In this document: positions 15,001 through 28,933 of the stretch, piece after piece
Layout: every line of letters starts with the position of its first letter
How positions within the stretch are numbered: the stretch's first letter is position 1
Source: Candidatus Omnitrophota bacterium
GTDB lineage: Bacteria; Omnitrophota; Gorgyraeia; Zapsychrales; JANLHA01
Reading direction: 5' to 3'
Length of the DNA: 32,000 bases
Assembly (NCBI GenBank): GCA_963662715.1
Contig: OY759724.1
Span: 30,001 to 62,000, forward strand
Position numbers and translations under genes: made by a program
Notes under the pieces: model-generated
What the model was told of the DNA's origin: nothing
Seen by the model: only the letters and a program-made list of their open reading frames with translations
Databases searched by the model: none

Positions 15001-18000
15001 TGACATCCACTCCCGAAGCAGAGTCGCTCGTGCTGACAATCGGCTGGTTTTCCAATAACTGACAAGAGAAAGAGGTCGTCGGCTCCTGGGTAAAGGTTAA
15101 GGTTTTATCCTCCATGGTGAAGGTTTGCACCGCGCTCCAGTCTCCCGGGACATCGGCCTCGCCAGAACCGCCGTCATGCGCCGTATCCCAGAAACGGATC
15201 CGCCAGTAATACGTTGAGCCGTCTATGGACAAAGCTGTTCCGGCATAAGAGACATCGTTCATTCGTGTGTTTTCGGTGACATCACTTCCCGTATCGGTTT
15301 TCCCGGTGTCCCACATGCGTGTGCCGTCAAAGGTATTGGCCGTGTCAACCTCAATCTCATAATAGGAACAGTCATCGGTGTCCGGATCATCACAGATGGC
15401 GGAGAACTCCGGGGTGGTGTCCGTCACGTCGGTCACGGGAGTCACAGAGCCCTCACAGTAAGGGGTGAGCGGAGCAGAAGCCACCTCATTGGTGACTTCA
15501 TCCGCCCCGATATCCGGGGATGTTCCGTCCCGGGCGTCCGCATCGATATCATCCGTAACAGGCAGATTGGCGTCACTGTCCAGATCTGTTCCGTTGGTCC
15601 CCCATAAGGTCAAACTATCGTGACGAAGGTGCAAATCTGTCGAGGTTGCTCCGGCTTCATAAAAATAGTCCGTATAATCCGTTTCATTGGTCTGGCTGCC
15701 GGTTCCGGAAGCCGTGGCATCAGATGACACATTATAAGACTGGGTGATTGTGCCGTTGAAACAAGCCTCGCTTCCATTCGTACTGTTTACTTCGCCGCAG
15801 GAAGAGTTTCTTACCGTCATCGTTCCGCTGACATTGTCGATCCCACGGGCATAACCCGTACTGCCGGTGTTGTTGATCGCATGAAGCGTGAGGTTGTGCA
15901 GATAATAAGTATCACCGCCAGATGCGGCTAACAGCCCGACAATGTTCGAGCTTGCATTCGTTGAGAGGTTTGTCATATCGTAAATTATCGTATTGCGAAC
16001 CTTCAGGTTCCCGTCATTTATAACAATCCCTCTCACATTGCTGGCGTCGGTGTCATCTGTCGTAGAGTTATCCAGATCATGAATGATGGCTTTACTGATC
16101 TGAATATCGGAACTGCTGTCGCTGATGGCGGCATTCAGCGAAATCCCATCAAGGTTTTCCGCATTCGTAATCTGTGATCCGTCTATCTCTATGCCTTCGA
16201 TACGGACATAATCATCGGATATATCAATGACCGAATAAGGATCGCCCGGGCTGGAATTCGAAGGCTGAATCACGACTCCCGTCCCTTCTTCACCGGTATG
16301 CCGCTGTGAGCTGCCGACCTCCGAGGATAAAGACGGGGCGAACATCCGGATATAATGAGTGCTGTCCGTCGTATAGCCGTCAATCGTCAACTGCGCGCCA
16401 GAGCCATCGGCCCCGTCAAACACGCCGTCAGAATACAAAACCCAGTTCAGCTGGACGTCCGCACCGGCAGAGGTCAGATCCGCGCTGTTGAGGTAACTCC
16501 CCCCGGATGAATTCGATTCCGCGGAGGAAAGCGTGTTAAACGCGCGGCTAATAGACGTGACGGCCGTGCTTGACAGATCTGACGGGACGGCGCCCGTGGC
16601 TGTTGTCACGGTATAAACCGTCGAAGACTGCCGGCTCTGAATATAATAAGTATTTCCCCCGGCGACGAGTTCGTCTCCGGCCCCGACATCATCCGCCTGA
16701 GCGGCAGTAAATTCGGCTGTATGATTGGTGATCGTGACGTTGGGAGAACCGCTTGTCAGATCACCCGTATCCGTTCCGACAGAATAATAGACTTCCACGA
16801 CCGGTTCGATAGAAAGATACGGACGATCAGAGGCGGAAGACGCGTCTTGGCTATGTATGCTGACATACTCGGCGCCCGATGGAGAGGTTCCGCTAACGTC
16901 CCTGTCGGACAAGAGGGCATAGAGGGTACTGCCGCTGGTGGAAACATAGGAGGTGTCAAGGCTTTGGGAAGAATAATAAACACCTGTCGACATCCCGGAC
17001 GTCCCGCGCCAGTCGGCGTCATACGTGCTGGCCAACGCCCCGTCAAAATTTGATTCTTGATATGAAGCGATCGGACTCGACCAACTGTATTGATGTATCC
17101 GGGCTGTAAAATCCGTTGTGGAGGCATCTGTGTTCGCTTTAAGATACAAATGAGCCCTGGCCGGAGCGGCGGATAAAGACGATGTGTCAAAAGACAAATA
17201 AGCCCGGTGGACATCATATACAAGGCCGGCGGTAAAATTCTGCCCGACTAAAAAAGTGGCTCCGGAATCATCGCTCGAGGACGATGAGTTACGGGCCTGC
17301 GTATAAGAGGGGTCCTGTCCCGAAATATATCCGTCCGCCGAATTCCCGTAAAATGTATCGGGATCAATCTGAACAGGATAAGCGGCATTTTTAAACCAGT
17401 CTAAGGGGAACTGAACCGAGACACAGAACGCATGCTCCTCCGAAGACGGCTGAGTTGATGTGTCTTTTCCCGTATCCGGAAGAGGGCTGAGGATAAATTG
17501 CCCGTAAACCTTTTCCCCGTTGGCATCTATGGCAACAGGCTTTTTCCACCACCATAAAACTTTTTTCTCCTCATCCACAAAATCCACATGCGTCGTTACG
17601 GAAGGTTTTCTGTCATTCCAAATTTTGCCATCAAAGAGCAGCTCCAAATCCGTCGCAAAATGAAGCGTAAGGGAAAGAGCTGAACCGGCAGAAGGCTCAG
17701 CAGAACCGGACAAGGATAAAGAATCCAAAGATTCCACAGAGAGAATCTTGATGAAACGGACATCGCTGGGAGTATAACGGAAATTCAATCCCCGGCCGTA
17801 AGCCTCCGGCCATTCAATAAATCCGCCCCCGGAGACGATATCAAAGGGCTTATTGCTGACCTGCCCTGTAACGGGACGGGGCCTGGCCAGGATGTGTTGC
17901 GTTCTTTTTTCTGTATCATCTTCAGAAAAGTGAACAGAAAGAGGTCCCGGGACAGCTTCTAAATAATGGCCGTCTTTCTCCAGACGTAAAATTTTGTGTT

Positions 18001-18412
18001 CACCAAATGCTTTCTTAACATAAGCCCGGTAATCCGCATCGACCATTTGATAGGACCACGGAGGAGTTGCCGTGGTTACCGCGTCATAAGGCTGCCATCG
18101 GGTATCGATATCTTGCCAGGCGCCGTTTTTCTCATAATGAAGGTCTCCGGAGGAAACAATAATCTGCTCCTGCCCGTCCGGCCGAAGGAATGTTTTTGAA
18201 GATCGCGTGCGTTCTTCCGGGAGTTCGACAGAACCCTGCGGCAAGCCTTTGATATATTGATGCTCTGAAGAGGTGACGGGAAGGGGATCCGATTCTCTGC
18301 TGCCAGGATTCGCAACATAAGAAAACACTCTGGGCACAGAGAGGAGGTATAGTCCTAGTATTATTAATAGAACGTAGTTCTTATTATCAATTTTTAGAAA
18401 GGGTTGACGCAT
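1..18412 (-). CDS. Giant secreted repeat protein. The 5' end is complete and the 3' end runs off the window (at least 6137 codons here).
   Basis: Manual reverse-complement translation. The ATG is at 18412..18410, with an in-frame TGA 12 codons upstream (plus-strand tca at 18449..18451) and no other start codon between them. The N-terminus reads MRQPFLKIDNKNYVLLIILGLYLLSVPRVFSYVANPG. I translated codon by codon from 18412 to 14341 without a stop. Inside the array, the same frame (plus-strand triplets starting at positions = 2 mod 3) reads CCA (Trp) once per 39 nt. I checked the places where the plus-strand ORFs break (11642-11695, 13022-13200, 14222-14345) and found no TTA/CTA/TCA in phase. 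I did not verify every codon in 1-14340. All neighbouring genes are on the same strand. Confidence 0.85.
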   Translation of the reverse strand, partial: MRQPFLKIDNKNYVLLIILGLYLLSVPRVFSYVANPGSRESDPLPVTSSEHQYIKGLPQGSVELPEERTRSSKTFLRPDGQEQIIVSSGDLHYEKNGAWQDIDTRWQPYDAVTTATPPWSYQMVDADYRAYVKKAFGEHKILRLEKDGHYLEAVPGPLSVHFSEDDTEKRTQHILARPRPVTGQVSNKPFDIVSGGGFIEWPEAYGRGLNFRYTPSDVRFIKILSVESLDSLSLSGSAEPSAGSALSLTLHFATDLELLFDGKIWNDRKPSVTTHVDFVDEEKKVLWWWKKPVAIDANGEKVYGQFILSPLPDTGKDTSTQPSSEEHAFCVSVQFPLDWFKNAAYPVQIDPDTFYGNSADGYISGQDPSYTQARNSSSSSDDSGATFLVGQNFTAGLVYDVHRAYLSFDTSSLSAAPARAHLYLKANTDASTTDFTARIHQYSWSSPIASYQESNFDGALASTYDADWRGTSGMSTGVYYSSQSLDTSYVSTSGSTLYALLSDRDVSGTSPSGAEYVSIHSQDASSASDRPYLSIEPVVEVYYSVGTDTGDLTSGSPNVTITNHTAEFTAAQADDVGAGDELVAGGNTYYIQSRQSSTVYTVTTATGAVPSDLSSTAVTSISRAFNTLSSAESNSSGGSYLNSADLTSAGADVQLNWVLYSDGVFDGADGSGAQLTIDGYTTDSTHYIRMFAPSLSSEVGSSQRHTGEEGTGVVIQPSNSSPGDPYSVIDISDDYVRIEGIEIDGSQITNAENLDGISLNAAISDSSSDIQISKAIIHDLDNSTTDDTDASNVRGIVINDGNLKVRNTIIYDMTNLSTNASSNIVGLLAASGGDTYYLHNLTLHAINNTGSTGYARGIDNVSGTMTVRNSSCGEVNSTNGSEACFNGTITQSYNVSSDATASGTGSQTNETDYTDYFYEAGATSTDLHLRHDSLTLWGTNGTDLDSDANLPVTDDIDADARDGTSPDIGADEVTNEVASAPLTPYCEGSVTPVTDVTDTTPEFSAICDDPDTDDCSYYEIEVDTANTFDGTRMWDTGKTDTGSDVTENTRMNDVSYAGTALSIDGSTYYWRIRFWDTAHDGGSGEADVPGDWSAVQTFTMEDKTLTFTQEPTTSFSCQLLENQPIVSTSDSASGVDVTIAILSNPGSSSLIGTTTVTTNGSGVATFTDLQIPVPGVGYTLQATASGYISDTTAAFTVEPCTTPMSTVVYDDSNGDLYVKCWLEGSEGRVTLGASDTCAVNIYEPDGTLEKAISTGDFGTPSSNVFSYAWSADSPDFDSSYFAEVLIYYDARSQTYTSYDTYDLTQFAILQDVNDILVDTSSINWTNVTDIKAKTDTINWTDITEIKSKTDTINWDDIGVLMSDLSSIRSSADALDDVNWDDMEVMTTSQVNWTNVYSMAAAQINWEDITVMTEAGINWEDMEFMSDAGVNWFDIAYMSGAGVDWSETINWDNLAELTTAGVNWEDLTVMSEVGLNWDDLEIMSKAEVNWYDFGVLSLSGMNWANLTEMSMSGINWADLDALSDAGINWRDLDLLTDAGINWLDLDVLSDTGINWVGFNELSTAGVNWEDIAALSHAGVNWTGLDDLATTGVNWDDIAELSTVGINWTNINALSEAGINWKDIDVLSDTGINWKDIDVLSDAGINWLDINALSDAGINWRDLDVLSDIGINWTEFNELSTAGVNWADLAELSTAGMNWAGLDDLATSAVNWDDIAVLSDAGINWISINDLSDAGINWLDIDVLSDAGVNWSAIDVLSDAGVNWMNLAEMTDAGINWVELENMAIDIQGVNWENIEEMSTSGINWDSIADMAEAGVNWIALEEISKSAVNWVGLADMANSNVNWMNISEMSSSGINWTELEEMAIDVQGVNWSSLEEMTTAGINWDNFGDLSSAGINWENLENMAIDIQGVNWDNIRDMTDANVNWDDIQVLSESGINWLDIDVLSDTGINWQDVDILSDAGINWADLDILSDAGINWQDIDILSDANVNWTGWDEIASSGVNWDNIANMSDAGINWLDIDVMSDTGINWDDVRVLSEQGMNWVSINDMSDAGINWLDIDVLSDAGVNWKDIDVLTDRGINWTNLSDLSGAGINWLDIDILSDTGINWKDLDVLSDTGINWVDIEVMSARGINWVSINDLSDAGINWLDIDVMSDMGINWADLDVLSDAGVNWMDINVLSDAGINWLDLDVMSDRAVNWLEIGELSTAGINWLDVGVMSTRNINWLGIYDLSLSGVNWQDINIMSEQGINWLSVYSMSAAGINWADIDVMSDRGVNWTGIDLMSKAGINWQDIDVLSDAGINWQDLDVFSDTGINWLDIDVMSSAGVNWVSVNDLSDAGINWLDIDVLSDRGINWTGINDLSDAGINWLDIDVLSDAGINWEDINVLSDTGINWRDIDVLSDVGMNWVSVNDLSDAGINWLDIDVLSDAGINWRDLDVLSDAGINWRDLDVLSDAGINWRDLDILSDTGINWTDIDVMSSAGVNWVSINDLSDTGINWLDIDVLSDVGINWVSVNDLSDAGINWADIDILSDTGINWKDIDVLADKGINWEDIDVLSDAGINWLDLDVLTDAGINWLDIDVMSDAGVNWDGLVDMANKGINWDSISDMSISGVNWLNLDEMTMSGINWDRIGEMSDSDINWLNIGEMSLKGINWDNITVMSEAGINWTDMGKMTINGINWMNIAELSSSGINWLDLDVLSDTGINWQDINVMSDMGINWVSVNDLSDAGINWLDIDVLSDAGINWLDLDVLSDTGINWQDINVLSDAGINWVDLDVLSDTGINWLDIDVMSSAGVNWVSVNDLSDAGINWLDIDVMSDAGINWLDWDVLSDAGINWQDLDVLSDAGINWLDLNVLSDTGINWLDIDVMSSAGVNWVSVNDLSDAGINWQDLDVLSDAGINWQDINVLSDAGINWQDINVLSDAGINWLDLDVLSDTGINWQDIDVMSSAGINWVSVNDLSDAGINWLDIDVLSDAGINWVDLDVLSDTGINWSDLDVLSDAGINWVDLDVLSDTGINWQDIDVMSDMGINWVSVNDLSDAGINWLDIGVLSDAGVNWQDIDVLSDTGINWQDIDVMSDMGINWVSVNDLSDAGINWQDIDVMSDMGMNWVSMSDMTNAGINWLDIDVLSDAGINWLDIDVLSDTGINWQDINALSDAGINWRDLDVLSDTGINWQDIDVMSDMGINWVSVNDLSDAGINWLDIDVMSDAGINWLDLDVLSEAGINWLDIDVLSEAGINWLDLDVLSDTGINWQDIDVMSDMGINWVSVNDLSDAGINWLDIDVMSDAGINWLDWDVLSDTGVNWSDINEMSDAGINWVSVNDLSDAGINWLDIDVMSDARMNWVSMSDMTNAGMNWLDIDVLSDAGINWLDIDVLSDTGINWSDLNVLSDAGINWVSVNDLSAAGINWQDIDVMSDAGVNWINIGDMTDAGINWLDIDVLSDAGINWSDMDVLSDTGINWSDINVMSDIGINWVSMNDLSDAGINWQDIDVMSDMGMNWVSMSDMTNAGINWLDIDVLSDAGINWQDLDVLSDTGINWQDLNVMSDMGMNWVSMSDMTNVGINWQDINVMSDMGINWVSVNDLSDAGINWLDIDVLSDAGINWLDLDVLSDVGINWQDLDVFSDAGINWRDLNILSDAGINWLDIDVLSDMGINWVSVNDLSDAGINWLDIDVLSDAGINWQDLDVLSDTGINWQDIDVMSSAGVNWVSVNDLSDAGINWLDIDVMSDMGINWVSVNDLSDAGINWQDVDVMSDAGINWQDLDVLSDTGINWQDINVMSSAGVNWVSVNDLSDAGINWLDIDVMSDAGVNWQDIDVLSDTGINWQDLDVLSDAGINWVDLDVLSDTGINWQDINVMSDMGINWVSVNDLSDAGINWLDIDVLSDAGINWLDLDVISDTGINWSDINVLSDAGINWVDLDVLSDAGINWQDIDVMSNAGVNWVSVNDLSDAGINWQDIDVMSDAGINWLDLDVISDAGINWQDIDVLSDVGINWLDLDVLSDTGINWVDIDVMSSAGVNWVSVNDLSDAGINWLDIDVLSDAGINWQDINVLSDAGINWQDINVLSDAGINWLDLDVLSDTGINWQDIDVMSSAGVNWVSVNDLSDAGINWQDIDVMSDARINWLDLDVISDTGINWLDIDVLSDAGINWVDLDVLSDTGINWSDINVMSDMGINWVSVNDLSDAGINWLDIDVMSDTGINWLDLDVLSDTGVNWSDINVMSDAGINWVSVNDLSDAGINWQDIDVLSDMGMNWVSMSDMTNAGINWLDIDVLSDTGINWLDIDVLSDTGINWQDINALSDAGINWRDLDVLSDTGINWQDINVMSDMGINWVSVNDLSDAGINWLDIDVMSDAGINWLDLDVLSEAGINWLDIDVLSEAGINWLDLDVLSDTGINWQDIDVMSDMGINWVSVNDLSDAGINWLDIDVMSDAGINWLDWDVLSDTGVNWSDINEMSDAGINWVSVNDLSDAGINWLDIDVMSDARMNWVSMSDMTNAGMNWLDIDVLSDAGINWLDIDVLSDTGINWSDLNVLSDAGINWVSVNDLSAAGINWQDIDVMSDAGVNWINIGDMTDAGINWLDIDVLSDAGINWSDMDVLSDTGINWSDINVMSDIGINWVSMNDLSDAGINWQDIDVMSDMGMNWVSMSDMTNAGINWLDIDVLSDAGINWQDLDVLSDTGINWQDLNVMSDMGMNWVSMSDMTNVGINWQDINVMSDMGINWVSVNDLSDAGINWLDIDVLSDAGINWLDLDVLSDVGINWQDLDVFSDAGINWRDLNILSDAGINWLDIDVLSDMGINWVSVNDLSDAGINWLDIDVLSDAGINWQDLDVLSDTGINWQDIDVMSSAGVNWVSVNDLSDAGINWLDIDVMSDMGINWVSVNDLSDAGINWQDVDVMSDAGINWQDLDVLSDTGINWQDINVMSSAGVNWVSVNDLSDAGINWLDIDVMSDAGVNWQDIDVLSDTGINWQDLDVLSDAGINWVDLDVLSDTGINWQDINVMSDMGINWVSVNDLSDAGINWLDIDVLSDAGINWLDLDVISDTGINWSDINVLSDAGINWVDLDVLSDAGINWQDIDVMSNAGVNWVSVNDLSDAGINWQDIDVMSDAGINWLDLDVISDAGINWQDIDVLSDAGINWLDLDVLSDTGINWVDIDVMSDMGINWVSVNDLSDAGINWLDIDVLSDAGINWQDINVLSDAGINWQDINVLSDAGINWLDLDVLSDTGINWQDINVMSSAGVNWVSVNDLSDAGINWLDIDVMSDAGINWLDLDVISDAGINWQDIDVLSDAGINWLDIDVMSDTGINWLDIDVMSSAGVNWVSVNDLSDAGINWLDIDVMSDTGINWLDLDVLSDTGVNWSDINVMSDAGINWVSVNDLSDAGINWQDIDVLSDMGMNWVSMSDMTNAGINWLDIDVLSDTGINWLDIDVLSDTGINWQDINALSDAGINWRDLDVLSDTGINWQDINVMSDMGINWVSVNDLSDAGINWLDIDVMSDAGINWQDLDVLSDTGINWLDLDVMSDAGINWQDLDVLSDTGINWQDINVMSDMGINWVSVNDLSDAGINWLDIDVMSDAGINWQDMDVLSDTGINWQDINVMSDMGINWVSVNDLSDAGINWVDIDVMSDMGMNWVSMSDMTNAGINWLDIDVLSDAGINWSDIDVISDTGINWSDLDVLSDAGINWSDIDVLSDAGVNWQDINVMSDIGINWVSVNDLSDAGINWLDIDVMSDAGINWQDLDVLSDTGINWQDLNVMSDMGINWVSVNDLSDAGINWLDIDVMSDTGMNWVSMSDMTNAGINWLDLDILSDAGINWQDLDVLSDTGINWQDINVMSDMGINWVSMNDLSDAGINWQDIDVMSDAGMNWVSMSDMTNAGINWLDLDILSDAGINWQDLDVLSDTGINWQDINVMSDMGINWVSVNDMSDAGINWLDIDVMSDIGMNWVSMSDMTNAGINWLDLDILSDAGINWQDMDVLSDTGINWQDLNVMSDMGINWVSVNDMSDAGINWLDIDVMSDMGMNWVSMSDMTNAGINWLDIDVLSDTGINWLDLDVLSDTGINWQDLNVMSDMGINWVSVNDMSDAGINWLDIDVMSDAGINWLDIDVLSDAGINWADIDVLSDAGINWQDLNVLSDTGVNWQ
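162..1214 (-). repeat. 234-bp (6-unit, 78-aa) higher-order repeat, about 4.5 copies
   Basis: The same ordered set of six unit variants recurs at 162, 396, 630, 864 and 1098. For example, 361-480 is near-identical to 595-714. Confidence 0.85.
2034..10339 (-). repeat. 3432-bp (88-unit, 1144-aa) higher-order tandem repeat: two full copies plus a diverged partial third
   Basis: Copies start at 2034, 5466 and 8898. The landmark 'tccctgta...ccaaatcccgccaattaatccccgcatcactcagagcattaatatcctg' occurs at 2041, 5473 and 8905. The block 3022-5431 matches 6454-8863; the antisense translation is identical throughout and the nucleotides were identical at the six places I spot-checked. The flanking mismatches are 3021 g versus 6453 a, and 5432 a versus 8864 g. 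Confidence 0.9.
10340..10651 (-). repeat. Island of 8 divergent 'x-x-I-x-E-M-S-x-x-G-I-N-W' units interrupting the uniform array
   Basis: Units translated in ascending plus-strand coordinate order: MNIAELSSSGINW, TDMGKMTINGINW, DNITVMSEAGINW, LNIGEMSLKGINW, DRIGEMSDSDINW, LNLDEMTMSGINW, DSISDMSISGVNW, DGLVDMANKGINW. They resemble the degenerate units at 12400-14400. Confidence 0.8.
14822..15100 (-). other. Ig-like (Big-type) domain
   Basis: The sequence reads LTFTQEPTTSFSCQLLENQPIVSTSDSASGVDVTIAILSNPGSSSLIGTTTVTTNGSGVATFTDLQIPVPGVGYTLQATASGYISDTTAAFTVEP. The 'G-x-A-T-F-x-x-L ... G-x-Y-T-L-x-A-T-A-x-G' pattern is typical of bacterial Ig-like domains. Confidence 0.4.
15110..15415 (-). other. 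FN3-like beta-sandwich (resembles the alpha-L-rhamnosidase N-terminal type)
   Basis: The sequence reads TPEFSAICDDPDTDDCSYYEIEVDTANTFDGTRMWDTGK...YAGTALSIDGSTYYWRIRFWDTAHDGG...WSAVQTFTM. I recall the 'YYWRVRVWD ... WS' motif from that domain type. Confidence 0.45.
15497..16800 (-). other. Right-handed parallel beta-helix (PbH1-like) region
   Basis: Repeated ~22-25 aa rungs are rich in N/I/G/T: ...DDYVRIEGIEIDGSQITN..., ...SDIQISKAIIHDLDN..., ...VRGIVINDGNLKVRNTIIYDM..., ...YYLHNLTLHAINNTGS..., ...GIDNVSGTMTVRNSS... The region ends with the typical cap ...TDLHLRHDSLTLWGTNGTDLDSD...DDIDADARDGTSPDIGADE. Confidence 0.6.
16805..17355 (-). other. Lectin-like (DNRLRE / CBM96-like) beta-sandwich module
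   Basis: The pattern is ...GATFLVGQNF...VHRAYLSFDTSSLSAAPARAHLYLKAN... ending in ...SQDASSASDRPYLSIE. It resembles the 'R-x-Y/L-L-x-F-D-L-S ... A-x-L-x-L ... (N/D)RP-x-L-x-V/I' signature of that family. No search was run. Confidence 0.4.
17360..18300 (-). other. N-terminal beta-rich module ending in a YPVQIDP motif
   Basis: The translation contains ...KKPVAIDANGEKVYGQF... and ...DWFKNAAYPVQIDPDTF. I recall the 'P-x-A-x-D-A-x-G ... YPVxIDP' pattern from the N-terminal regions of large secreted DNRLRE-type and wall-associated/RHS-type proteins. This is motif recall only. Confidence 0.35.
18332..18412 (-). other. N-terminal signal peptide or signal anchor of the giant protein
   Basis: A charged N-region (MRQPFLKIDNK) is followed by the hydrophobic stretch YVLLIILGLYLLSV. 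I cannot identify a cleavage site by eye. Confidence 0.55.
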
Positions 18413-18438
18413 AAAAACTATATTACAACATGAATCGG

Positions 18439-18462
18439 CCCAGAAACCTCATTCCCAGAAAC
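18439..18462 (-). promoter_or_regulatory. Direct repeat GTTTCTGGG x2 (15-bp period) upstream of the giant gene; possible operator or promoter element
   Basis: Plus-strand cccagaaac occurs at 18439..18447 and 18454..18462, which is 27-50 nt upstream of the ATG. No Shine-Dalgarno sequence is visible. A TAATAT hexamer lies about 8-13 nt upstream of the ATG on the minus strand. Confidence 0.2.
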
Positions 18463-18588
18463 GGAAAGACACCGGCTACCTGTCTCCTCAAACCGGAAAA
18501 GAACAAGCATCCCTGGCCATTCCAGCTTCTGAAAAATTTTTCTACGCCTTAATATAAGATAAAATTAAATTATTGTAACGTTATCACC

Positions 18589-20511
18589 TCACTCACTCAT
18601 CTGATCAACGATCTCTTCTTTAGCGCCCGTGTATTTCCACCAATTCTCGCGTTCTTCTCTCACTTCTTTGTCTAAAGACGAATCAATGCTGCCCATGAGC
18701 TCCATCTGAGCGGCAATGATTTTTTCTTTAACTAAATGCAGATCCTCCGCTTCCGGATTTAACCATAAATACTGCTGATAATGAGTCAACGCTGTTTTAA
18801 AATCTCCCAAATATTCACTGGAAACAAATGCGAGATTAAAGTGGGCGTTCGCATCATGAGGGACAAGCTGAACGGCCTTCCGGTACTCGTCCCGGGCTCT
18901 GCCATAATGTCCCTGATGAAAAAATATATTCCCCATGTTGTAATGCACTTTCCCCTCATCTTCCCGCATGGTTTCATGTTCCGAGGACATTTCGTCCAGC
19001 ATGGAAATAACTTTCTGACTCCTCACGCGGTCGTGAAATGCCGCGTCGGCCAAAACCTGCTCTTCCCCGGCAAATGATATTTCCGGCGCCGCCTCTGAAC
19101 TGACAACAGCCCCTCCCTGCGCCAGTAAACCGCCTGTCAGATCATGCTTTAATTGCTCGGCCTGAGATTGCAGCCGGACGATCTGCTGCTCCCACACATT
19201 GAGTTTGTTCGAAGCAACCCCATCAGATGAGCGGGACAAATTCCCAAGCAGCTCTTCTTTCGCCTCGCTCACCATACTGGCAAGCTGCCTCGCTTCCGCC
19301 AAAGCAATCCCTTTGTATTTTTCCGTCAGCTTCTGCTCAATGACATTGACTTGCGCAAGAATATCATTGATGCGTTTTTTTGCTAATTGTTTCTGCCGCG
19401 TTTTAAAATCTGAAATTTCCTGCTCTTTCTTAGCCAATTGATTCTCCAGTTGCTGAATCTCTTCCTGCAAGGCATTTTTCCGTTCGGCACTCATTTCCGA
19501 AGGCAAAGAAGAATATTCCTGGGACTTATCGGCTAAGGTCTGCTGTACTGTCTCAACCTGAGCGACCATCTCCTGCGATTTCGATTCCTGTTCTTCCTTG
19601 AATTTCTCAAACTCCTGACTTCGCTGAGCAAGTTGTTTCTCCAGGCCTTTCAGCTCCTCCGTTAAACTCATAGCCTTGCTCTCGGCAGCTTCCTTGGCGG
19701 TCTGCAACTCGGATATTTGCGCCTGGTATTCCCGAGTTTTATTTTTGAGCTCCTCCTCCAGTTGCGACACCTGCCGAGAAAGCTTTTCAAGATCTTCTTC
19801 TGCCTGCGTCCGCTGCTCTTCGCTCAGCTGTTTCATCTCGTCTTCCCGTTCCATCATCTGGCGACGCAACTCCACAATGGTTTTTTGAAGATGATTTAAC
19901 TCACGCGCTGATATCTCAACCTGGACGGTCTCCCCCTCTTCCGGGATAATTCCGGGACTCGGCTCGGCCAGCATAAATTCTAACTTCTGATTCTTTTCAA
20001 CGAGCTCTTTTTCTATTTCAGCAATTCTTTCCTGCAACTTCAGCACATTTTTTTGTGAATTCTCCAGCATGCCTTTATAGGAATCCCGCTCTTTATCAAG
20101 GACACGCAAACGGTTCACCTCGATTGTTCGCTGGCCCCGCAAATTTTTCAACTGTTGATCCAATCCCTTCTTTTGAGACTCTAATTCCTGATTCTTTTCA
20201 ATGGCCTCTTTTAAAATGCGGTTCAGTTGAATAATTTTTTCGGGGCTTAAGGATTCACCCACATCGACCTGCACGGCTGTTATCTCTTTGGCCCCTGCCC
20301 CGGAACCGGGAATCTCCTTTTCCGTTTGTCTCCGGCCGAATTTCGGCTTTTCTACGACAATTTGATCCAGGCCAATTTCCGTTTCAATGATCGTGACATC
20401 CCCCTCAACCGTCACCGGTCGATCTTGCGCAGATACCACGGCAGGACACAGTGACCACAACCATAAACAGGATAAAATAACCGTTAAATTTTTATTTCCT
20501 CTATGTATCAT
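18589..20511 (-). CDS. Secreted coiled-coil protein with a C-terminal TPR domain (MshN/PilF-like role possible)
   Basis: 640-aa ORF. The N-terminus MIHRGNKNLTVILSCLWLWSLCPAVVSAQ looks like a signal peptide. A region of about 380 aa is E/K/Q/L-rich (for example LQERIAEIEKELVEKNQKLE and QLENQLAKKEQEISDFK). TPR-like helices lie at the C-terminus (YNMGNIFFHQGHYGRARDEYRKAVQLVPHDANAHFNLAF...ALTHYQQYLWLNP). The ATG is 7 nt after the secretin stop. Confidence 0.8.
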   Translation of the reverse strand: MIHRGNKNLTVILSCLWLWSLCPAVVSAQDRPVTVEGDVTIIETEIGLDQIVVEKPKFGRRQTEKEIPGSGAGAKEITAVQVDVGESLSPEKIIQLNRILKEAIEKNQELESQKKGLDQQLKNLRGQRTIEVNRLRVLDKERDSYKGMLENSQKNVLKLQERIAEIEKELVEKNQKLEFMLAEPSPGIIPEEGETVQVEISARELNHLQKTIVELRRQMMEREDEMKQLSEEQRTQAEEDLEKLSRQVSQLEEELKNKTREYQAQISELQTAKEAAESKAMSLTEELKGLEKQLAQRSQEFEKFKEEQESKSQEMVAQVETVQQTLADKSQEYSSLPSEMSAERKNALQEEIQQLENQLAKKEQEISDFKTRQKQLAKKRINDILAQVNVIEQKLTEKYKGIALAEARQLASMVSEAKEELLGNLSRSSDGVASNKLNVWEQQIVRLQSQAEQLKHDLTGGLLAQGGAVVSSEAAPEISFAGEEQVLADAAFHDRVRSQKVISMLDEMSSEHETMREDEGKVHYNMGNIFFHQGHYGRARDEYRKAVQLVPHDANAHFNLAFVSSEYLGDFKTALTHYQQYLWLNPEAEDLHLVKEKIIAAQMELMGSIDSSLDKEVREERENWWKYTGAKEEIVDQMSE

Positions 20512-20518
20512 GCAGGCA

Positions 20519-22195
20519 TCAATCCTTTAATTTTAAAACGTGTTGGTCCCGTTGAAAATTCTCTGCCCCGTATTCCGCCGCAGGCTTCAACTGCCCCTTA
20601 TAGTCGCTAAACGGCTTCTCGTGCGAAATAATATGGGGAGTAATAAAAATCACAATTTCCGTAGCCTCTATCGAAGACTCTTCCGAACTGAATAAACGTT
20701 TCACAAAAGGGATATCCATAAGAACAGGGAAACCCTTCTTCACATGAACTTTGTTTTCCTTCTTCAACCCCCCCAGAACAATCGTCATGCCGTCTTTCAC
20801 CATAACCGTCGTTTCGACTAAGGTTTTATTGACTTGAGGGATTCCTCCCCCCTGCGATTCAATAGAACCGACAACTGTCGAGATTTCCGGCTTTAAGGCC
20901 ATCGTGACAAATCCATCATTATTAATGGTCGGGGTCACGTTCACTTTTAATCCGACATCCACGAACCGGACGTCTTCCGATGTTATGGCATTATCGCCTG
21001 TCCCGGAGGTTGTTGAAATAATATAAGGGACCGTGTCACCGACATGAATCTTTGCCTCCTCGTTATTCGTGACAAGAATCTTCGGGTTCGAGAGGATTTT
21101 CGTGTTACTGACAGACTTCAAGGCTCTGATCGCCAGTTCAAACTGATTGACATCAATGTCCCCGATGCCGTAGCGCATATAATTTGAAAACAAATTGTCT
21201 CCGGAAGACAGGTTGTCTTCGTCTAAAAAGATACTGTCAAAACTCATCCGGCGCAAAATATTATAATCACTCTTTCTGAAATCCAGCTGCCAATCGATAC
21301 CGAAATCCTGCTCGGGCTTAAACACAACCTGCAAGACACGGGCTTCAACGAGCACTTCTTTTGTCGGCTGGTCCAGAGATAGTATGAGGGCTTCAATCTC
21401 ACTCCGGCGGTCCGGGAAAGCCCGCACGATGAGTTGATTCGTTCTCTCATCAACGGTAATAGACCCGACAGAATGCGCATCAATGCGTGCTTTCAATTTT
21501 TCCGCCAGCACATCCGCTTTGGCATACTGAAGCGTATAAATAAAAGGCGCCAAAGGTTTCTCCAGGCCCGAAATAGCCTCTTTCATTTTCCCAACGGTAC
21601 CTTTGTTGTCGATCAGAACCACCGACCCGGTATCCTCATCAATAATAATACGTCCCAAAGCGCTTTTAATATTTTCCAAAGCGGCCAGGACATAACTCGG
21701 CTTAGCGTATTTCAGCTGGATAATCTCAACAACACTATTGTCGTTGAATTTTTTACCGTACATCACCTCATACTCCTGTTCCGTCATAACCCGAATAATA
21801 TCATTTTCCACAATATACGCCAACCGACTGGAAAGAACCGCGATGTCCAAGGCGTCCTGAATGGAAACGCTCTTCAAATAAAACGTCGCTCTTCCCTGGA
21901 TCGTTCCGTGCGTTACAAGGTTGAAATCCCCTTTTAACGCTAAGAATTTAAGAACATCAATCACGCTCATCTCCCGAACGTCCAGGGTGATTTTTTTCTC
22001 CAAACGTTGCTCCAGGGGAATTTTCGGCCCGTCAAATTCAATCGGGCGCGGAGACGTCATTTGCAAACGCAGTTCATCTTCCTGCCGGGGGACAGTCATG
22101 TTTTGCGCTGGCAGAGGCCCGCACCAGAGACAGCCCCAGGCCACCATCAACAGGAAAAACAAAACATTCCTAAAAATATCAAGCCGGCTTTTCAT
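20519..22195 (-). CDS. Secretin (GspD/PilQ/MshL family outer-membrane channel)
   Basis: 558 aa with a signal peptide. An N0/STN-like region is present (ITLDVREMSVIDVLKFLALKGDFNLV...DALDIAV). The C-terminal secretin core is canonical: ILSNPKILVTNNEEAKIHVGDTVPYI...VDVGLKVNVTPTINNDGFVTMALKPEIS...TTVMVKDGMTIVLGGL...FPVLMDIPFVKRLF...EIVIFITPHII. The start overlaps the upstream gene's stop by 4 nt (ATGA). Confidence 0.92.
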   Translation of the reverse strand: MKSRLDIFRNVLFFLLMVAWGCLWCGPLPAQNMTVPRQEDELRLQMTSPRPIEFDGPKIPLEQRLEKKITLDVREMSVIDVLKFLALKGDFNLVTHGTIQGRATFYLKSVSIQDALDIAVLSSRLAYIVENDIIRVMTEQEYEVMYGKKFNDNSVVEIIQLKYAKPSYVLAALENIKSALGRIIIDEDTGSVVLIDNKGTVGKMKEAISGLEKPLAPFIYTLQYAKADVLAEKLKARIDAHSVGSITVDERTNQLIVRAFPDRRSEIEALILSLDQPTKEVLVEARVLQVVFKPEQDFGIDWQLDFRKSDYNILRRMSFDSIFLDEDNLSSGDNLFSNYMRYGIGDIDVNQFELAIRALKSVSNTKILSNPKILVTNNEEAKIHVGDTVPYIISTTSGTGDNAITSEDVRFVDVGLKVNVTPTINNDGFVTMALKPEISTVVGSIESQGGGIPQVNKTLVETTVMVKDGMTIVLGGLKKENKVHVKKGFPVLMDIPFVKRLFSSEESSIEATEIVIFITPHIISHEKPFSDYKGQLKPAAEYGAENFQRDQHVLKLKD

Positions 22196-22929
22196 AAACG
22201 GACGTTCATCCTTTCCCCCATGTAGGAAAAATCTACGCTGTCTGCGTAAATCTTTTCAACTTTGACCCCAAGGAACTCCTCTCCTGTTTTCAGGAAATGA
22301 GTGACCTCTGTCTGATGATCTTCTATCATGACAGTTACCGAATCCGGCGACTCAAGCCAAGAAATTCCGACCAGCTTAAACTGATTGAGTTTCTCGGCAA
22401 TCAGTTGATTAGGCAGGACTTCTTCCACGGCTTCATCCACGACTTCCACCTTTCTTTCAAAAGGCTGAAAAATATTCCGATAAGAGACAAGACTCATATA
22501 TTCCGTAACATCTTTGACAATATTTTCAAGACGGCCGGCCAGGCCTTTTTGTGAGGATGTCAAAGCAGGAATCTCTACTTGAATGGATCTTTGGGCAGAC
22601 TTCATGCCTTTGCTGAAATCAGACACAAAATAGGCGCCCACAAGCAAAAGGGCAAAAAACAAAACTTTGTTTAATTCCCTGACGCTTAATGTCTGCGGTA
22701 TTTGAGCCATTGTGGCGGGATTCCGGATCAGCTGAAACAATTGTCCGATCCCGGATGGTAAAGTGAGCGTGCCCATCCCCAAACTTTGAACCGAATCCAA
22801 GGTCTTCTGCGCATCCGCATTGACCGAGGCAGCAGAGGAAGAGGACGGCGCAGCAGCAGAAGCGGGTTCCTGAGCTTCTGTGGCCTCAATGAGTTTGAGA
22901 AGTTTTTGTTCTGCAGTTTCTTTGGCCAT
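22192..22929 (-). CDS. Bitopic inner-membrane protein with a GspC/PilP-like (HR-type) C-terminal domain
   Basis: 245 aa. The N-region is low complexity and A/S-rich. There is one TM segment (VLFFALLLVGAYFV). The C-terminus LVGISWLESPDSVTVMIEDHQTEVTHFLKTGEEFLGVKVEKIYADSVDFSYMGERMNVRL matches the 'L-x-G-I ... A-x-I ... y-x-x-G-d-x-l ... v-x-x-I ... V-x-l ... g' pattern of secretin-binding domains. The stop is translationally coupled to the secretin start. Confidence 0.5.
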   Translation of the reverse strand: MAKETAEQKLLKLIEATEAQEPASAAAPSSSSAASVNADAQKTLDSVQSLGMGTLTLPSGIGQLFQLIRNPATMAQIPQTLSVRELNKVLFFALLLVGAYFVSDFSKGMKSAQRSIQVEIPALTSSQKGLAGRLENIVKDVTEYMSLVSYRNIFQPFERKVEVVDEAVEEVLPNQLIAEKLNQFKLVGISWLESPDSVTVMIEDHQTEVTHFLKTGEEFLGVKVEKIYADSVDFSYMGERMNVRL

Positions 22930-22965
22930 ATAATTAACTTAAATCATAACACCAATCAACGCTTC

Positions 22966-23901
22966 TTATCCTTGAGGGGATTCCCCCTGTTTGAAGCCTG
23001 CATGCGGGAATAATCGGTATCCCAAATCGAACGGATTTTGCTGGGGAAGGTCAAGGCCCCGTATCCGGAATTGCTCTTCCTTATCAACCACGTCTCGCAC
23101 TAATCTTCGATCAACGGCATGCTTATTCTGCAAGATTAACTCTTTAAGGACCTGATGACATAGTTTCGTGATTTTCCGCGGATAACCTCGTGTGTAGTTA
23201 TAAATCTCTGATATCGCCTCATCCAGGAACAATTCCATCCGGCTATTATACCCGGCTGTCGTCACGCGGAAGAGGATCAATTCTTTCGTTTCTTTTGCGT
23301 CAAGCGGATTGAGAGTATATTTAAAACTTACCCGATCAATAAAATTCGGCATCGTCATAATCTTGGCGTATAATTCCACCTGCCCCAACAAAACAAGCTG
23401 TAAAAGTTTGAACTCATTGGTTTCAAAATTTAAAAGCACGCGCAAAGTTTCCAGTGTTTCCAAATCCAATTTCTGAGCCTCATCAATGATTAATATGACC
23501 GTTTGCCTTTCTTCCAAGGCTTTATGAATAAGAAATTTTTCAAAAGCATCGCGCAATTCTAAAATATCAGCCTTATAAGGATCAAATCCGAAAAAAGAAT
23601 CAACGTTAAAATTTCTGGCCAGGGAGATAAGGAATTGTTTTTCATCGGAGAAGACGGGATTGAGGATAATGTGAAAAAGCATATTGCCGCGCTTTTTCAA
23701 TTCCTGAACAAGCAATCGGGACAGACTTGTTTTCCCGGTTCCGACATCGCCAAAAATCACGGACAAGCCTCGTTTGAGATGAAGCTCAATCAGGATATTT
23801 GTGAGAGCCATGTCATGTTCTTTTGTGAGATAAAAGAACTCGGGATCCGGGCTCGTGGAGAATGGTTCTTTATGAAATCCTAAAAGTGTATAATAGGCCA
23901 T
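22966..23901 (-). CDS. ExeA/GspA/MshM-family AAA ATPase (secretin assembly factor type)
   Basis: 311 aa. The N-terminus MAYYTLLGFHKEPFSTSPDPEFFYLTKEHDMAL is typical of ExeA. The Walker A motif is GDVGTGKTS and the Walker B motif is VILIIDEAQKL. Confidence 0.85.
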   Translation of the reverse strand: MAYYTLLGFHKEPFSTSPDPEFFYLTKEHDMALTNILIELHLKRGLSVIFGDVGTGKTSLSRLLVQELKKRGNMLFHIILNPVFSDEKQFLISLARNFNVDSFFGFDPYKADILELRDAFEKFLIHKALEERQTVILIIDEAQKLDLETLETLRVLLNFETNEFKLLQLVLLGQVELYAKIMTMPNFIDRVSFKYTLNPLDAKETKELILFRVTTAGYNSRMELFLDEAISEIYNYTRGYPRKITKLCHQVLKELILQNKHAVDRRLVRDVVDKEEQFRIRGLDLPQQNPFDLGYRLFPHAGFKQGESPQG

Positions 23902-23929
23902 AGTTCTTTTAAAAAGGACTATAAATAAA

Positions 23930-23959
23930 AGTATAAAATATGTTTTCCCTAAAATGCAA
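23930..23959 (-). promoter_or_regulatory. Candidate sigma70-like promoter for the ExeA-secretin operon
   Basis: On the minus strand, TTGCAT - 18 nt - TATACT sits in the AT-rich 273-bp spacer (23902-24174), about 30-55 nt upstream of the ATG at 23901. The match is weak and was made by eye only. Confidence 0.2.
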
Positions 23960-24174
23960 ATTTAAATTACATGTTGATTCTAACATAAGTGCCTAAGGGC
24001 ACAAATACTTAATTGTCTTTTTTTTGAGCATTTTTCACATATTTAGGCGTTTTTCTCGAGGAGAAAATAGAAAGGTGGCCAACGGAGTTCTCAGGAGGAA
24101 AATTTTTGATAAAATTATGAATTTTTCTTACACAAAACCTCTAGAAAACCAGAGAATTAAGGCTTTATGCCCCT

Positions 24175-25158
24175 TCACTTGGAAGCCCTCCGGCAACAAA
24201 AAGCGACAAATCCCGCAAAAAATCCCAGACTTCTTTCAACAGCTCTTAATAACATAATGATTGTAAATTTAATAATATTATTCTTTCTACATTTTATTTT
24301 AATACTAAAATGGAATTCTAATGCTGTTAGGAATATCAAAAGTAAAAAGAAGAAGGATATTACACGTAAGCCCCCCCCGAGAAAACTCGCGGCCAGCACC
24401 ACGGCCCCGGCATAAACAGCAGCAATTTCCGCAGAGTCCTTCCAGAACGTATAATCGTCTCCCCGCATCATTGAAGGATGACAAAGATACATTTTAAATC
24501 GCCAAAATCCATGCCGATATTGTTCACGCAAATATCTTCCGGCATGCTCAGGATGGTAATGATCAACCAGGGCCTTTTTGGCGAAAAAAATTTTATACCC
24601 GGAAGACAGCACTCGATAACTCAGATCATTATCTTCTCCGCTGGCATGCCTGTATTCCCCGTTAAACCCCCCCAGCGCCACGAACAATGACCGCCGGAGA
24701 GCGACATTATAACTTCCGAAGGCTTTAGGATAATCCGGCATTCGATTATGCCGGAATAAAATCTCCCGATAAACACAATCCGCCAACCATGCCCCGGGGT
24801 TAGCGATTCCGTAACTTCCCATTACGGCACCGACGGACGCTCCGGAAAAATGTTCAACAAGAGCACTCACCCAGTTCGGATGAGGAACACAATCAGCGTC
24901 CGTGAAACAGACAAACTCTCCCCGGGCACATTCTGCCCCCCTATTTCTTGCCCTCGCCGGACCAGCATTATCCTGGTAAATATAATGAACCCCTTCAAAA
25001 GACCGGACATATTGCGCCGTCCGGTCAGATGACCCGTCATCCACGACGACAATTTCTAACTCGCCAGCGTAATCTTGCGCGAGAGATGCTTGAATCGTCT
25101 GACGAATCGTTGCCTCTGCATTGTAGGCCGGGATGATAATACTGATGTCTTCAGGCAT
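24175..25158 (-). CDS. Family 2 glycosyltransferase with C-terminal membrane segments
   Basis: 327 aa. GT-A signatures are present: ISIIIPAYNAEATI, EIVVVDDGSSDRT, FTDADCV. The C-terminus is hydrophobic (AAVYAGAVVLAASFLGGGLRVISFFFLLLIFL). Confidence 0.85.
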   Translation of the reverse strand: MPEDISIIIPAYNAEATIRQTIQASLAQDYAGELEIVVVDDGSSDRTAQYVRSFEGVHYIYQDNAGPARARNRGAECARGEFVCFTDADCVPHPNWVSALVEHFSGASVGAVMGSYGIANPGAWLADCVYREILFRHNRMPDYPKAFGSYNVALRRSLFVALGGFNGEYRHASGEDNDLSYRVLSSGYKIFFAKKALVDHYHPEHAGRYLREQYRHGFWRFKMYLCHPSMMRGDDYTFWKDSAEIAAVYAGAVVLAASFLGGGLRVISFFFLLLIFLTALEFHFSIKIKCRKNNIIKFTIIMLLRAVERSLGFFAGFVAFCCRRASK

Positions 25159-25181
25159 ATTATTCGGGAGGTTATCTGTTT

Positions 25182-25838
25182 CTAATGTTTTTTTCCGACA
25201 GCAAAAAGCAGCATTCCAAATTGACGGCCCAAAAAAGAATCCGGAGACCAGAGGAAGGGCAACGTATTGATCCCCCCGGAGGAAATCACCCTCAGGCCAT
25301 TACGTTCGTAAAGATGCTGCAGGCCCTTCAACACAAACGGATCTTCTTTGATGCCGGGCATAAAAAAAGGACGAATCAGCTGCCATGGCGACCAACGATT
25401 CGGAACAACAGTGACCAGGAAGCCGTCATGACGCAACAGGGACATCAAATTGCGCACGATCATGTCCTGTTCTTGCAGATTAAAATGTTCAAAAAGACCG
25501 TCTGAAAAAATGAGATCAAAAGCGCCGTCTATGCCGCTGCGGAAACTGGATGACAACAAATCAGCCTTGACAACCCGGGCCCGACGGCCCGTGCTCTGAC
25601 GGGTCAAGTCAAGAGCCGACTGAGAATAATCCAGAGCCACGGTGCGCGCCCCCTGATCACAAAAATACTTTGAAAAAAATCCGCTACCGCAGCCCGCATC
25701 CAGGACATCCATCTCTTTCGACACATAAGGAGAGACTATTTGAATAATTCTCTTTTTGGACCAGGAGATGTTCGTGCCAGAAGGGATGTTATCCTTCCCC
25801 CAAAAATTATCCCAGTTTTTTGAAGAACACTTGGCCAT
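25182..25838 (-). CDS. Class I SAM-dependent methyltransferase
   Basis: 218 aa. Motif I is VLDAGCGSGFFSKYF. An acidic post-I residue follows (VALDYS), and the DLIFSDGLFEHF motif is present. Confidence 0.8.
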   Translation of the reverse strand: MAKCSSKNWDNFWGKDNIPSGTNISWSKKRIIQIVSPYVSKEMDVLDAGCGSGFFSKYFCDQGARTVALDYSQSALDLTRQSTGRRARVVKADLLSSSFRSGIDGAFDLIFSDGLFEHFNLQEQDMIVRNLMSLLRHDGFLVTVVPNRWSPWQLIRPFFMPGIKEDPFVLKGLQHLYERNGLRVISSGGINTLPFLWSPDSFLGRQFGMLLFAVGKKH

Positions 25839-25888
25839 AACGGTTATCTTTTATTTTAAAAAAAGCACCCATGACAAAAACCGCAAAA

Positions 25889-26263
25889 TCATGTTTCACG
25901 GCTGTTTGTATCTGCGTCCATTCTCTTGGTTATTTTTTCAAGCTTATTTTCCAGCAACCCGATTTTTTGCGCCATACGATCATTACGGCTATTTTGCTGA
26001 CAAAGTAAAATCGTTAACAAAAGGCTCAAAAAAACGAAGACGCAAATCATGGCGAAAAAAATAAAGTTACTTAACAATTCAAACCCAAAAACTCTGGAGA
26101 CGGCATGTAGGAATCCGTCAAAGACAGACAACAAAAGCCCTGCCAGCGAGACCAAAATCCATCCAGCCGCGTATTTAAATGTCAGCTTTTCTCGTCGGAC
26201 CAGTTCAACAATAAAAACAAATAAAACCAACGCCAAAAAAACAGACAACACTTTTGCGTTCAT
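25889..26263 (-). CDS. DUF2304-like small membrane protein (a typical GT2 partner)
   Basis: 124 aa with 3-4 TM segments. The 'VELVRREKLTFKYAAGWIL' motif is as I recall for DUF2304. A C-terminal amphipathic helix is present. The start overlaps the upstream GT2 stop by 4 nt. Confidence 0.6.
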   Translation of the reverse strand: MNAKVLSVFLALVLFVFIVELVRREKLTFKYAAGWILVSLAGLLLSVFDGFLHAVSRVFGFELLSNFIFFAMICVFVFLSLLLTILLCQQNSRNDRMAQKIGLLENKLEKITKRMDADTNSRET

Positions 26264-28912: not shown

Positions 28913-28933
28913 CTCAAATCACAAAGTCATTCT

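Follow-up and report, generated by a model that had tools for sequence, protein, structure and literature searches.

A secretin module beside a giant repeat gene in Omnitrophota as the probable outer-membrane half of a split type II secretion-like machine

This work concerns a four-gene secretin module and the giant repeat gene next to it in a Candidatus Omnitrophota bacterium (assembly GCA_963662715.1). The stretch analysed, here called the window, comprises 32,000 nucleotides of contig OY759724.1, positions 30,001 to 62,000 of the forward strand. According to the list of open reading frames (ORFs) and their translations, the module consists of four co-oriented minus-strand genes encoding an AAA ATPase, an HR-domain protein, a secretin and a protein with coiled-coil and TPR regions, hereafter the TPR protein. 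The genes for the ATPase and the HR protein are separated by a 36-nt gap, those for the HR protein and the secretin share a 4-nt ATGA overlap that reads cgtttATGAaaagc in the sequence, and the secretin and TPR genes lie 7 nt apart, read as TGAtgcctgcATG. After a further 176 nt the giant gene begins with its ATG at position 18412; we refer to it as the GINW gene. All these coordinates, the spacings, the 176-nt distance and the common orientation with the giant gene had been given in a first-pass annotation made from the letters of the window, and they proved exact upon comparison with the ORF list and the sequence (Table 1). The identities that it had proposed for the four genes were likewise correct, as judged by Pfam, NCBIfam, AlphaFold2 (AF2) modelling with Foldseek searches and an N0 profile.

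Table 1. Features of the secretin module and its flanks (positions refer to the window)
Feature	Positions	Strand	Basis
GINW repeat gene, 5' part, 6137 codons, incomplete	1-18412	-	open frame
Spacer between TPR gene and giant gene, 176 nt	18413-18588	-	sequence scan and folding
Secreted coiled-coil protein with C-terminal TPR, 640 aa	18589-20511	-	TPR_11/TPR_2/TPR_1
Secretin, 558 aa	20519-22195	-	PF00263 (1.6e-47) and Secretin_N
Bitopic HR-domain protein of the GspC/GspB/PilP class, 245 aa	22192-22929	-	AF2 model and Foldseek
Short AAA ATPase of the GspA/ExeA/MshM type, 311 aa	22966-23901	-	AAA_22 (1.5e-21)
AT-rich spacer upstream of the ATPase gene, 273 nt	23902-24174	-	sequence read

The secretin possesses a signal peptide, an N0 domain (about residues 60-135), two N1-type domains and the secretin domain proper. 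It matches PF00263 with 161.7 bits against a gathering score of 27.5, and Secretin_N was found with 75.5 bits on two stretches. An AMIN domain was not matched in Pfam and an obvious S domain is absent. In the PDB, GspD and PilQ are about equally close relatives, and phage pIV (7ofh) and RcpA were also among the matches. A profile of the N-terminal 240 residues matched the PilQ N0 domain (9sh1, 4av2 and 4ar0, with E values from 8e-16 to 2e-12), and the N-terminal region is nearer to PilQ/HofQ than to GspD. The scores with the curated families all stayed below their cut-offs, with 225.5 bits for the GspD equivalog TIGR02517 (351.35), 246.2 bits for the PilQ subfamily TIGR02515 (284.35) and 172.4 bits for the MshL equivalog TIGR02519 (250.2). 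The protein also departs from the GspD standard of N0-N1-N2-N3 followed by an S domain.

The gene overlapping that of the secretin encodes a bitopic protein whose cytoplasmic N-terminal peptide, ETAEQKLLKLIE, is conserved. A membrane helix (about residues 83-112), a periplasmic linker and an HR domain (about residues 183-245) follow; a PDZ domain and a C-terminal extension are absent. In Pfam the window protein had no match at all, and with the GspC equivalog NF041515 it scored 21.8 bits (1.3e-4) against a cut-off of 150. PF11356 (T2SSC) is present in roughly half of its listed homologues, and the orthologue from a distant related locus (L059; related loci are numbered with the prefix L) reaches the T2SSC gathering score with 27.9 against 27. 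The AF2 model, built with 56 homologues, contains the membrane helix and has pLDDT values above 90 over the C-terminal beta domain (183-245). When this domain was compared with the PDB by Foldseek, the best seven matches were all HR domains, of LspC, GspB, GspC, PulC and PilP (among them 7oio LspC, 4wfw GspB and 6hcg_e PulC), with probabilities of 0.97-1.0. Against GspC in the GspC-GspD complex (3oss_C), TMt was 0.77 and the rmsd 1.9 A. The modelled C-terminal domain thus has the HR fold of GspC, GspB and PilP.

The first gene of the module encodes an ATPase with 77.5 bits for AAA_22 in Pfam, and its translation contains the Walker A motif GDVGTGKTS and a DEAQ motif. The top NCBIfam match is TIGR03015, the XrtA/PEP-CTERM system-associated ATPase, with 181 bits, which is below the cut-off of 324.5. 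Members of its 90% cluster are labelled 'general secretion pathway protein A' by JGI/MGnify. The protein has neither hydrophobic or transmembrane segments nor a match to the peptidoglycan-binding family PF01471 in Pfam. Because it lacks both a membrane segment and this domain, it is, judged by its sequence, a cytoplasmic short GspA/MshM form and not a full GspA/ExeA with a transmembrane and a periplasmic part. A short GspA without periplasmic region is a known archetype from Alteromonas and Pseudoalteromonas (PMC9239104). Sequence searches of the PDB returned nothing relevant for either the ATPase or the HR protein. The ATPase is the best-conserved protein of the module, with 56-90% identity across related loci, and its gene occupies its slot in at least 32 of 61 of them. 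A possible trace of pairing is seen in the N-terminal peptide of the HR orthologues from L001-L072. Next to an ATPase gene the peptide has the form ETAEQKLLK(L/M)IE; in loci without this neighbour it is mostly ...LLKMMQK or ...LLKALQK. This difference may be a weak hint of co-evolution of the ATPase and the HR protein, and it is confounded by phylogeny.

The TPR protein starts with an N-terminal hydrophobic signal (residues 9-28) that by reading resembles the signal peptidase I type and not a lipobox. It continues with about 400 residues that give SMC-like coiled-coil matches and has TPR_11, TPR_2 and TPR_1 matches at residues 521-596. Scores with PilW (28.4 bits, cut-off 154) and Tgl (20.2 bits, cut-off 225) were low, and the similarity to the pilotins PilF, PilW and Tgl and to MshN appears to be only that of generic TPRs. 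The protein is therefore best described as a candidate pilotin or assembly or spacer factor. Its length varies across lineages from 161 to 640 aa, with 930 aa in L057; the coiled-coil part varies and the C-terminal TPR block is kept.

The 176-nt spacer that follows was scanned and folded. No canonical terminator-like site was detected by the terminator scan, and folding was modest (z -2.87). One weak promoter-like hexamer pair lies at 18579-18551. Of the two features that the first-pass annotation had named as arguing against coupling of the TPR and giant genes, a terminator was accordingly not seen and independent regulation finds a single weak promoter-like site; scan and folding cannot decide whether there is read-through from the TPR gene into the giant gene. 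The last 25 or so nucleotides before the giant-gene ATG are conserved in two related loci (L001 and L046).

From its ATG the GINW gene runs without stop codon for 6137 codons to the window edge. The encoded protein begins with a Sec-type signal (hydrophobic residues 13-34), which is followed by about 1290 aa of S/T-rich, non-repetitive sequence without confident domain and by 370 copies of the 13-residue unit D-I-D-V-L-S-D-A-G-I-N-W-x. In the window the repeats take up positions 1-14500 of the minus strand. The period is 13 in 361 of the 369 spacings, and N and W are invariant in the 326 in-register units downstream of residue 1909. Asp accounts for 17.7% of the repeat region, Lys and Arg together for 0.8%, and the repeats of the window show a super-period of six units (78 aa). 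No Pfam family covers the repeat; only spurious matches to sub-stretches were obtained (Ntox33, Lysostaphin_N). An AF2 prediction for 260 repeat residues, with 16 in-register window segments as alignment, had a mean pLDDT of 39 and is unusable for the shape or dimensions of a fibre. A homologue search with the N-terminal 1290 aa gave four matches and one with 1000 aa of repeats gave 14, all shorter than 1500 aa; long GINW proteins are not recovered by this word-based search. The giant-gene N-termini of the window and its relatives resemble signal peptides of the signal peptidase I type, and the family shares the C-terminal tail ...KLEEINAKI.ALREAMNVQDVVVKSYYESE

Family members differ widely in size, from 868 aa (L072, 10001-12607) and 1324 aa (L006, 14954-18928) to more than 6137 aa in the window. 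The first-pass view of the partner as a giant gene thus holds for the window and not for every member of the family. As far as the sequences go, the sizes show that the great length is a lineage-specific expansion of a conserved component of the locus. On the plus strand, positions 48-11657 hold an open frame of 3869 aa antisense to the GINW gene; it is a side effect of a repeat without stop codons. Positions 1-12000 have a GC skew of about -0.5, and positions 12001-14000 one of about -0.35.

Relatives of the locus were collected by a secretin scan over one genome per species, which yielded 62 Omnitrophota loci at 34-78% identity and eight Rhodocyclaceae loci at about 31%. The 62 loci stem from Omnitrophota metagenome-assembled genomes, and the Omnitrophota origin that the first-pass annotation had suspected is correct. 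For synteny, every ORF of the related loci was compared with the window proteins by BLAST. The module gene order recurs in 64 related loci (about 60 species-level genomes), mostly with the same 4-nt overlap between the HR and secretin genes, and because of this recurrence the arrangement is not due to chance. The conserved order is GcvPB-LplA-S41-GT2-DUF2304-(methyltransferase)-GT2-[ATPase]-HR-secretin-TPR, then none, two or three small genes, then the GINW gene. HR protein and secretin are adjacent in 57 of 61 loci, and the TPR protein directly follows the secretin in 55. A GINW-type gene is present downstream of the module in 33 of the 35 loci that are informative by having at least 4.5 kb beyond the TPR gene, which bears out a co-occurrence of module and GINW gene across genomes.

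In the subclade of the window the TPR gene adjoins the GINW gene directly, at a distance of 46-196 nt. Most lineages have two paralogous genes for secreted, FGE-sulfatase-like proteins of about 540 aa at this junction. The pair was seen in about 27 loci (for example L009, 12195-15450, and L072, 6796-9991) and is absent from the window's subclade; another type of insert, found in some lineages, consists of three genes of about 190 aa. The two informative loci without a GINW-type gene are the distant loci L055 and L057. In L055, a secreted ORF of another type, longer than 2500 aa and with Kre9_KNH Ig domains, lies downstream of ATPase, HR protein, secretin and TPR protein. An IS200-type transposase gene lies between the TPR gene and this ORF (L055, 5020-6294). 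L057 encodes, at 1672-10764, ATPase, HR protein, secretin and the 930-aa coiled-coil/TPR protein, followed by one further copy each of secretin and TPR protein as a tandem duplicate.

Genes for GspE, GspF or pilins were not found among the genes of the window, neither in the ORF list nor by domain search, which agrees with the first-pass statement that GspE/PilB, GspF and pseudopilin genes are missing there. Such genes came to light in a relative, L072 (JACQCF010000020.1), which was reached via its GINW homologue in the search with the repeats and carries both halves of a secretion machine on one contig. Its genes are arranged in the order HR protein, secretin, TPR protein, two FGE-like proteins, the 868-aa GINW protein, a protein of 435 aa here termed p435, an F-type ATPase operon, a GspE with an MshEN domain, GspF and GspG. 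With the L072 GspE as query, metagenome contigs were scanned and the 41 loci of at least 12 kb were annotated with Pfam and NCBIfam. Most of them have a large ORF followed by p435, the F-type ATPase operon, GspE, GspF, a Peptidase_MA_2-like protein, GspG, two N-methyl pseudopilins, GspK, a PilM/PilN fusion, a PilO/GspM-like protein and a TPR protein. GspG in these loci exceeds the NCBIfam equivalog cut-off (149 against 88.9). None of the ORFs of the 41 loci matched the secretin or the HR protein, and several clusters give way at their end to housekeeping genes or to genes on the opposite strand. The large ORF of 11 of the 41 loci encodes a GINW protein, again with a period of 13 residues, and the order there is GINW C-terminus, p435, F-type ATPase, GspE. 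All parts are contiguous in the distant locus L059, namely GspE, GspF, a pilin-like protein, a pseudopilin, GspK, the ATPase, GspC, the secretin and a coiled-coil protein.

Two further elements lie between the GINW gene and GspE in these relatives. p435 (L072, 12610-13917) has a signal peptide, is rich in coiled coil and ends in a C-terminal membrane anchor; in more distant clades (L104-L150) the large ORF itself ends in a p435-like region that includes the anchor. The F-type ATPase operon comprises alpha, epsilon, c-like, b/delta, gamma and beta genes (L072, 13933-19336; L091, 4421-9907), and no a-subunit gene was seen in either of these two operons. In its gene content it would fit the type 2/3 F-ATPases that Seymour et al. 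(2023) call 'symbiotic', and like these we regard it as probably non-respiratory.

Since L072 holds both halves, the downstream clusters lack a secretin and an HR protein, and L059 has everything in one piece, these genes appear to make up one machine that is split around the GINW gene, p435 and the F-type ATPase operon. We consider it probable that the module is the C/D half, that is the outer-membrane and periplasmic half, of such a split machine resembling a type II secretion system (T2SS) or type IVa pilus (T4aP), and that the GINW protein is its cargo or partner. The machine would be conserved across Omnitrophota. The secretin would form the outer-membrane channel. The bitopic HR protein would be anchored in the inner membrane and, by analogy with GspC, GspB/OutB and PilP, would dock its C-terminal HR domain onto the N0 ring of the secretin. 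As the downstream half in relatives comes without a separate GspC, this single protein may fill both the GspB-like and the GspC-like role. The ATPase would be an assembly factor of the GspA/ExeA/MshM type, paired with the HR protein in the way GspA is with GspB, and may be dispensable or encoded elsewhere in many lineages. A PilF/PilW/Tgl/MshN-like function in assembling or stabilising the secretin is conceivable for the TPR protein by the same kind of analogy. The inner-membrane and filament half would consist of the MshEN-domain GspE, GspF, GspG, two or three minor pseudopilins, GspK, the PilM-PilN fusion, PilO/GspM and a TPR protein; this pseudopilus half, encoded beyond the giant gene, would by comparison with known systems power export. 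Because it carries a Sec-type signal peptide, the GINW protein would reach the periplasm via Sec, and it would then be either cargo of the machine or a surface partner displayed through the secretin. Judged from the sister clades, the downstream half is most likely encoded in the window's own genome as well.

Several observations weigh against this interpretation. The window ends inside the giant gene, so that the downstream half is known from sister clades, and the contigs of its closest subclade all break in the giant gene or right after it, the longest call being 3179 aa (L153). About half of the loci lack the ATPase gene at its usual place, and L057 has its duplicated module without a giant gene within 10 kb. 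With GspD, PilQ, MshL and GspC, the window proteins stay below every curated NCBIfam cut-off; by these thresholds the proteins of the module are divergent members of broader superfamilies, outside those equivalogs. Passage of the GINW protein through the secretin is something we infer from gene context. Finally, the surroundings from GcvP to GT2 are syntenic too, and the adjacency may partly be due to inheritance of gene order. Taken further, this last point leads to an explanation in which the module is the secretin half of a general T2SS/T4aP-like machine that serves pili, adhesion, DNA uptake or many substrates and has no specific tie to the GINW protein. About 55 genomes share the synteny of the stretch that runs from GcvPA/PB, LplA, S41 and GT2 up to the module, and conservation therefore extends well past the junction of module and GINW gene. 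Most lineages have genes inserted between the TPR and GINW genes, the 176-nt spacer contains a promoter-like site, L057 has the module without a giant gene, and Seymour et al. read the cluster as an attachment T4aP (PMC10066038). However, every informative locus has the GINW gene enclosed by the two halves of a single machine, and L055, with different neighbours, again combines the module with a secreted ORF of more than 2500 aa, this time of another type. Moreover, T2SS-like genes adjoin unrelated types of giant genes across the phylum (West-Roberts et al., 10.1101/2023.11.21.568195), and the GINW protein has a Sec signal like T2SS substrates. We therefore regard a mere inheritance of gene order as unlikely, although it deserves to be taken seriously.

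The first-pass annotation had favoured a stripped-down, self-sufficient module, in which ATPase, HR protein, secretin and TPR protein, without GspE, GspF or pseudopilins, form the conduit or anchoring site of the giant protein. The four proteins would then be reserved for the giant protein and could be likened to the pIV/pI export pair of filamentous phages. Such a stand-alone device would account for the absence of E, F and G genes from the window, for the tight coupling of the four genes directly upstream of the giant gene and for the fact that the module encodes a P-loop ATPase of its own, and pIV is among the PDB relatives of the secretin. It is improbable in view of the relatives, which have an E-F-G-K-L/M cluster without secretin and HR protein a few kb past the GINW gene, on the same contig in L072, and everything contiguous in L059. 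In addition, the ATPase belongs to the GspA/MshM class of assembly factors and not to the Zot/pI-type or GspE-type motors, and it is absent in about half of the loci. A secretin-less pilus or T2SS cluster elsewhere, which the first-pass annotation had named as the case that would speak against it, was found in the relatives. A filamentous-phage-like pIV/pI pair was also considered and was rejected on the grounds that the ATPase is of the AAA_22/GspA class. The secretin as conduit for the giant protein, as originally proposed, would survive only in the sense that the protein is cargo of a complete T2SS-like machine.

A different assignment would have the module serve exopolysaccharide export or PEP-CTERM-type export and glycosylation together with the upstream GT2, DUF2304, methyltransferase and GT2 genes. 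TIGR03015 is indeed the top NCBIfam match of the ATPase, and the module is directly preceded, on its own strand, by glycosyltransferase genes in conserved synteny. Yet the score is far under the cut-off, the TIGR03015 family is itself homologous to GspA/MshM, and neither exosortase, Wza and Wzz nor PEP-CTERM features were seen in the window or the related loci. The GT2 gene is moreover parted from the ATPase gene by the 273-nt spacer and terminator-like hairpins. Secretins are not known to export polysaccharides. This assignment, which is hardly credible, was rejected on the sub-cut-off TIGR03015 score, the lack of visible exosortase, Wza and Wzz and the intervening spacer. A variant of our own interpretation, which we think very doubtful, is that the GINW protein is not released at all and forms a fibre that is tethered to the inner membrane via p435, threaded through the secretin and driven or extended by the F1-like ATPase and the pseudopilus machine. 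If this were true, the locus would encode a tethered-fibre organelle for adhesion or motility, composed of a T2SS-derived portal, a motor like that of Mycoplasma gliding and a giant leg protein, with the TPR protein as spacer or collar.

Upstream of the module, the same strand encodes GT2, methyltransferase, DUF2304, GT2, a 121-aa OSCP-like protein, an S41 peptidase, a 141-aa EF-hand-like protein, LplA and GcvPB. This block (GcvPB-LplA-EF-hand-like-S41-OSCP-like-GT2-DUF2304-methyltransferase-GT2) occupies positions 24175-31684 of the minus strand and is syntenic in about 55 Omnitrophota genomes. Terminator-like hairpins follow the GT2 gene next to the module at 24155-24138 and 24002-23989, and the AT-rich 273-nt spacer is, by its position and sequence, the likely promoter region of the four-gene unit. 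A scan of the whole window with Rfam gave no family match.

Omnitrophota are uncultured, ultra-small and probably predatory or parasitic bacteria whose giant genes are among the longest known. With the secretin half on one side of the GINW gene and motor, platform and pseudopilins on the other side in relatives, the locus shows the gene neighbourhood more clearly than published summaries do, and it provides concrete candidates for testing export or display of giant proteins, namely the secretin, the HR-N0 pair, p435 and GspE. According to West-Roberts et al. (2023, 10.1101/2023.11.21.568195), a T2SS/T4-like locus with more than 10 subunits, gspD, gspE and gspF among them, generally lies ahead of the giant genes of Omnitrophota; this association is repeated in a 2026 preprint (10.64898/2026.06.07.730766). 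As the first-pass annotation had surmised, the locus studied here belongs to this published class. It comes from the same phylum, has a gene for a very long secreted or anchored protein beside gspD/E/F-type genes, with E and F seen in relatives, and leads to the same idea that the machine serves the giant protein. The published locus, which includes rcpC and a Rotamase_2 peptidyl-prolyl isomerase, differs in that all of it precedes the giant gene, whereas in the window ATPase, HR protein, secretin and TPR protein precede it and in relatives the E-F-G-K-L/M genes follow behind the F-type ATPase operon. Unlike the 'Archaeovorin' and 'Dockerin-type' classes, the GINW protein of the window is devoid of many transmembrane helices and of SecA-like, HEAT or dockerin domains. 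The accessible portions of both texts (10.1101/2023.11.21.568195; 10.64898/2026.06.07.730766) do not use the word secretin and do not describe a GspA-like ATPase or an HR protein. Clusters of non-respiratory F-type ATPases were found co-located with T4aP clusters in every class and on 57 of 66 contigs (Seymour et al., 2023, PMC10066038). The GspE-F-G half of the relatives resembles these, being situated directly after an F-type ATPase operon that lacks an a-subunit gene. In contrast, giant ORFs are treated there as a separate trait, and a giant or GINW gene with a secretin half upstream of the ATPase is not reported in the available part of that paper (PMC10066038).

HR-N0 docking and the archetypes of short GspA and of GspB are established (PMC9239104). 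With the GspA-GspB (ExeA-ExeB) and GspC-GspD pairs (PMC9239104; 4wfw, 3oss, 6hcg) the module shares adjoining genes for an ATPase, a bitopic HR protein and a secretin with N0 domain. It differs from GspA-GspB in an ATPase without peptidoglycan-binding domain, an HR protein without PDZ domain or C-terminal extension and similarities that lie under the family cut-offs. The resemblance to MshK/L/M/N and to ExeA-type systems pointed out in the first-pass annotation holds. All four component classes of the MSHA genes mshK-mshL-mshM-mshN are present, and the motor ATPase of the relatives has an MshEN domain like MshE, but gene order differs, the MshL score of 172 is below 250, and relatives have a filament subunit at the level of the GspG equivalog as well as GspK, which are T2SS hallmarks. 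In E. coli sslE (yghJ) with gsp-beta and in Klebsiella pulA with pul, a cargo gene lies beside its own T2SS, and the cargos are enzymes of about 1100-1500 aa. Common to these systems and the locus described here is a large, Sec-exported protein encoded in or next to a gsp cluster, which brings it to the surface there and would do so here. In the family of the window, however, the neighbour is a highly acidic protein of 13-residue repeats, with a length between 868 and more than 6137 aa, and is a candidate cargo. As far as the accessible parts of the literature go, the split arrangement, the GspA-like ATPase with its HR protein and the GINW family as partner are not stated there. Together, these comparisons identify the locus as a new example of a published association, not as a new kind of secretion system.

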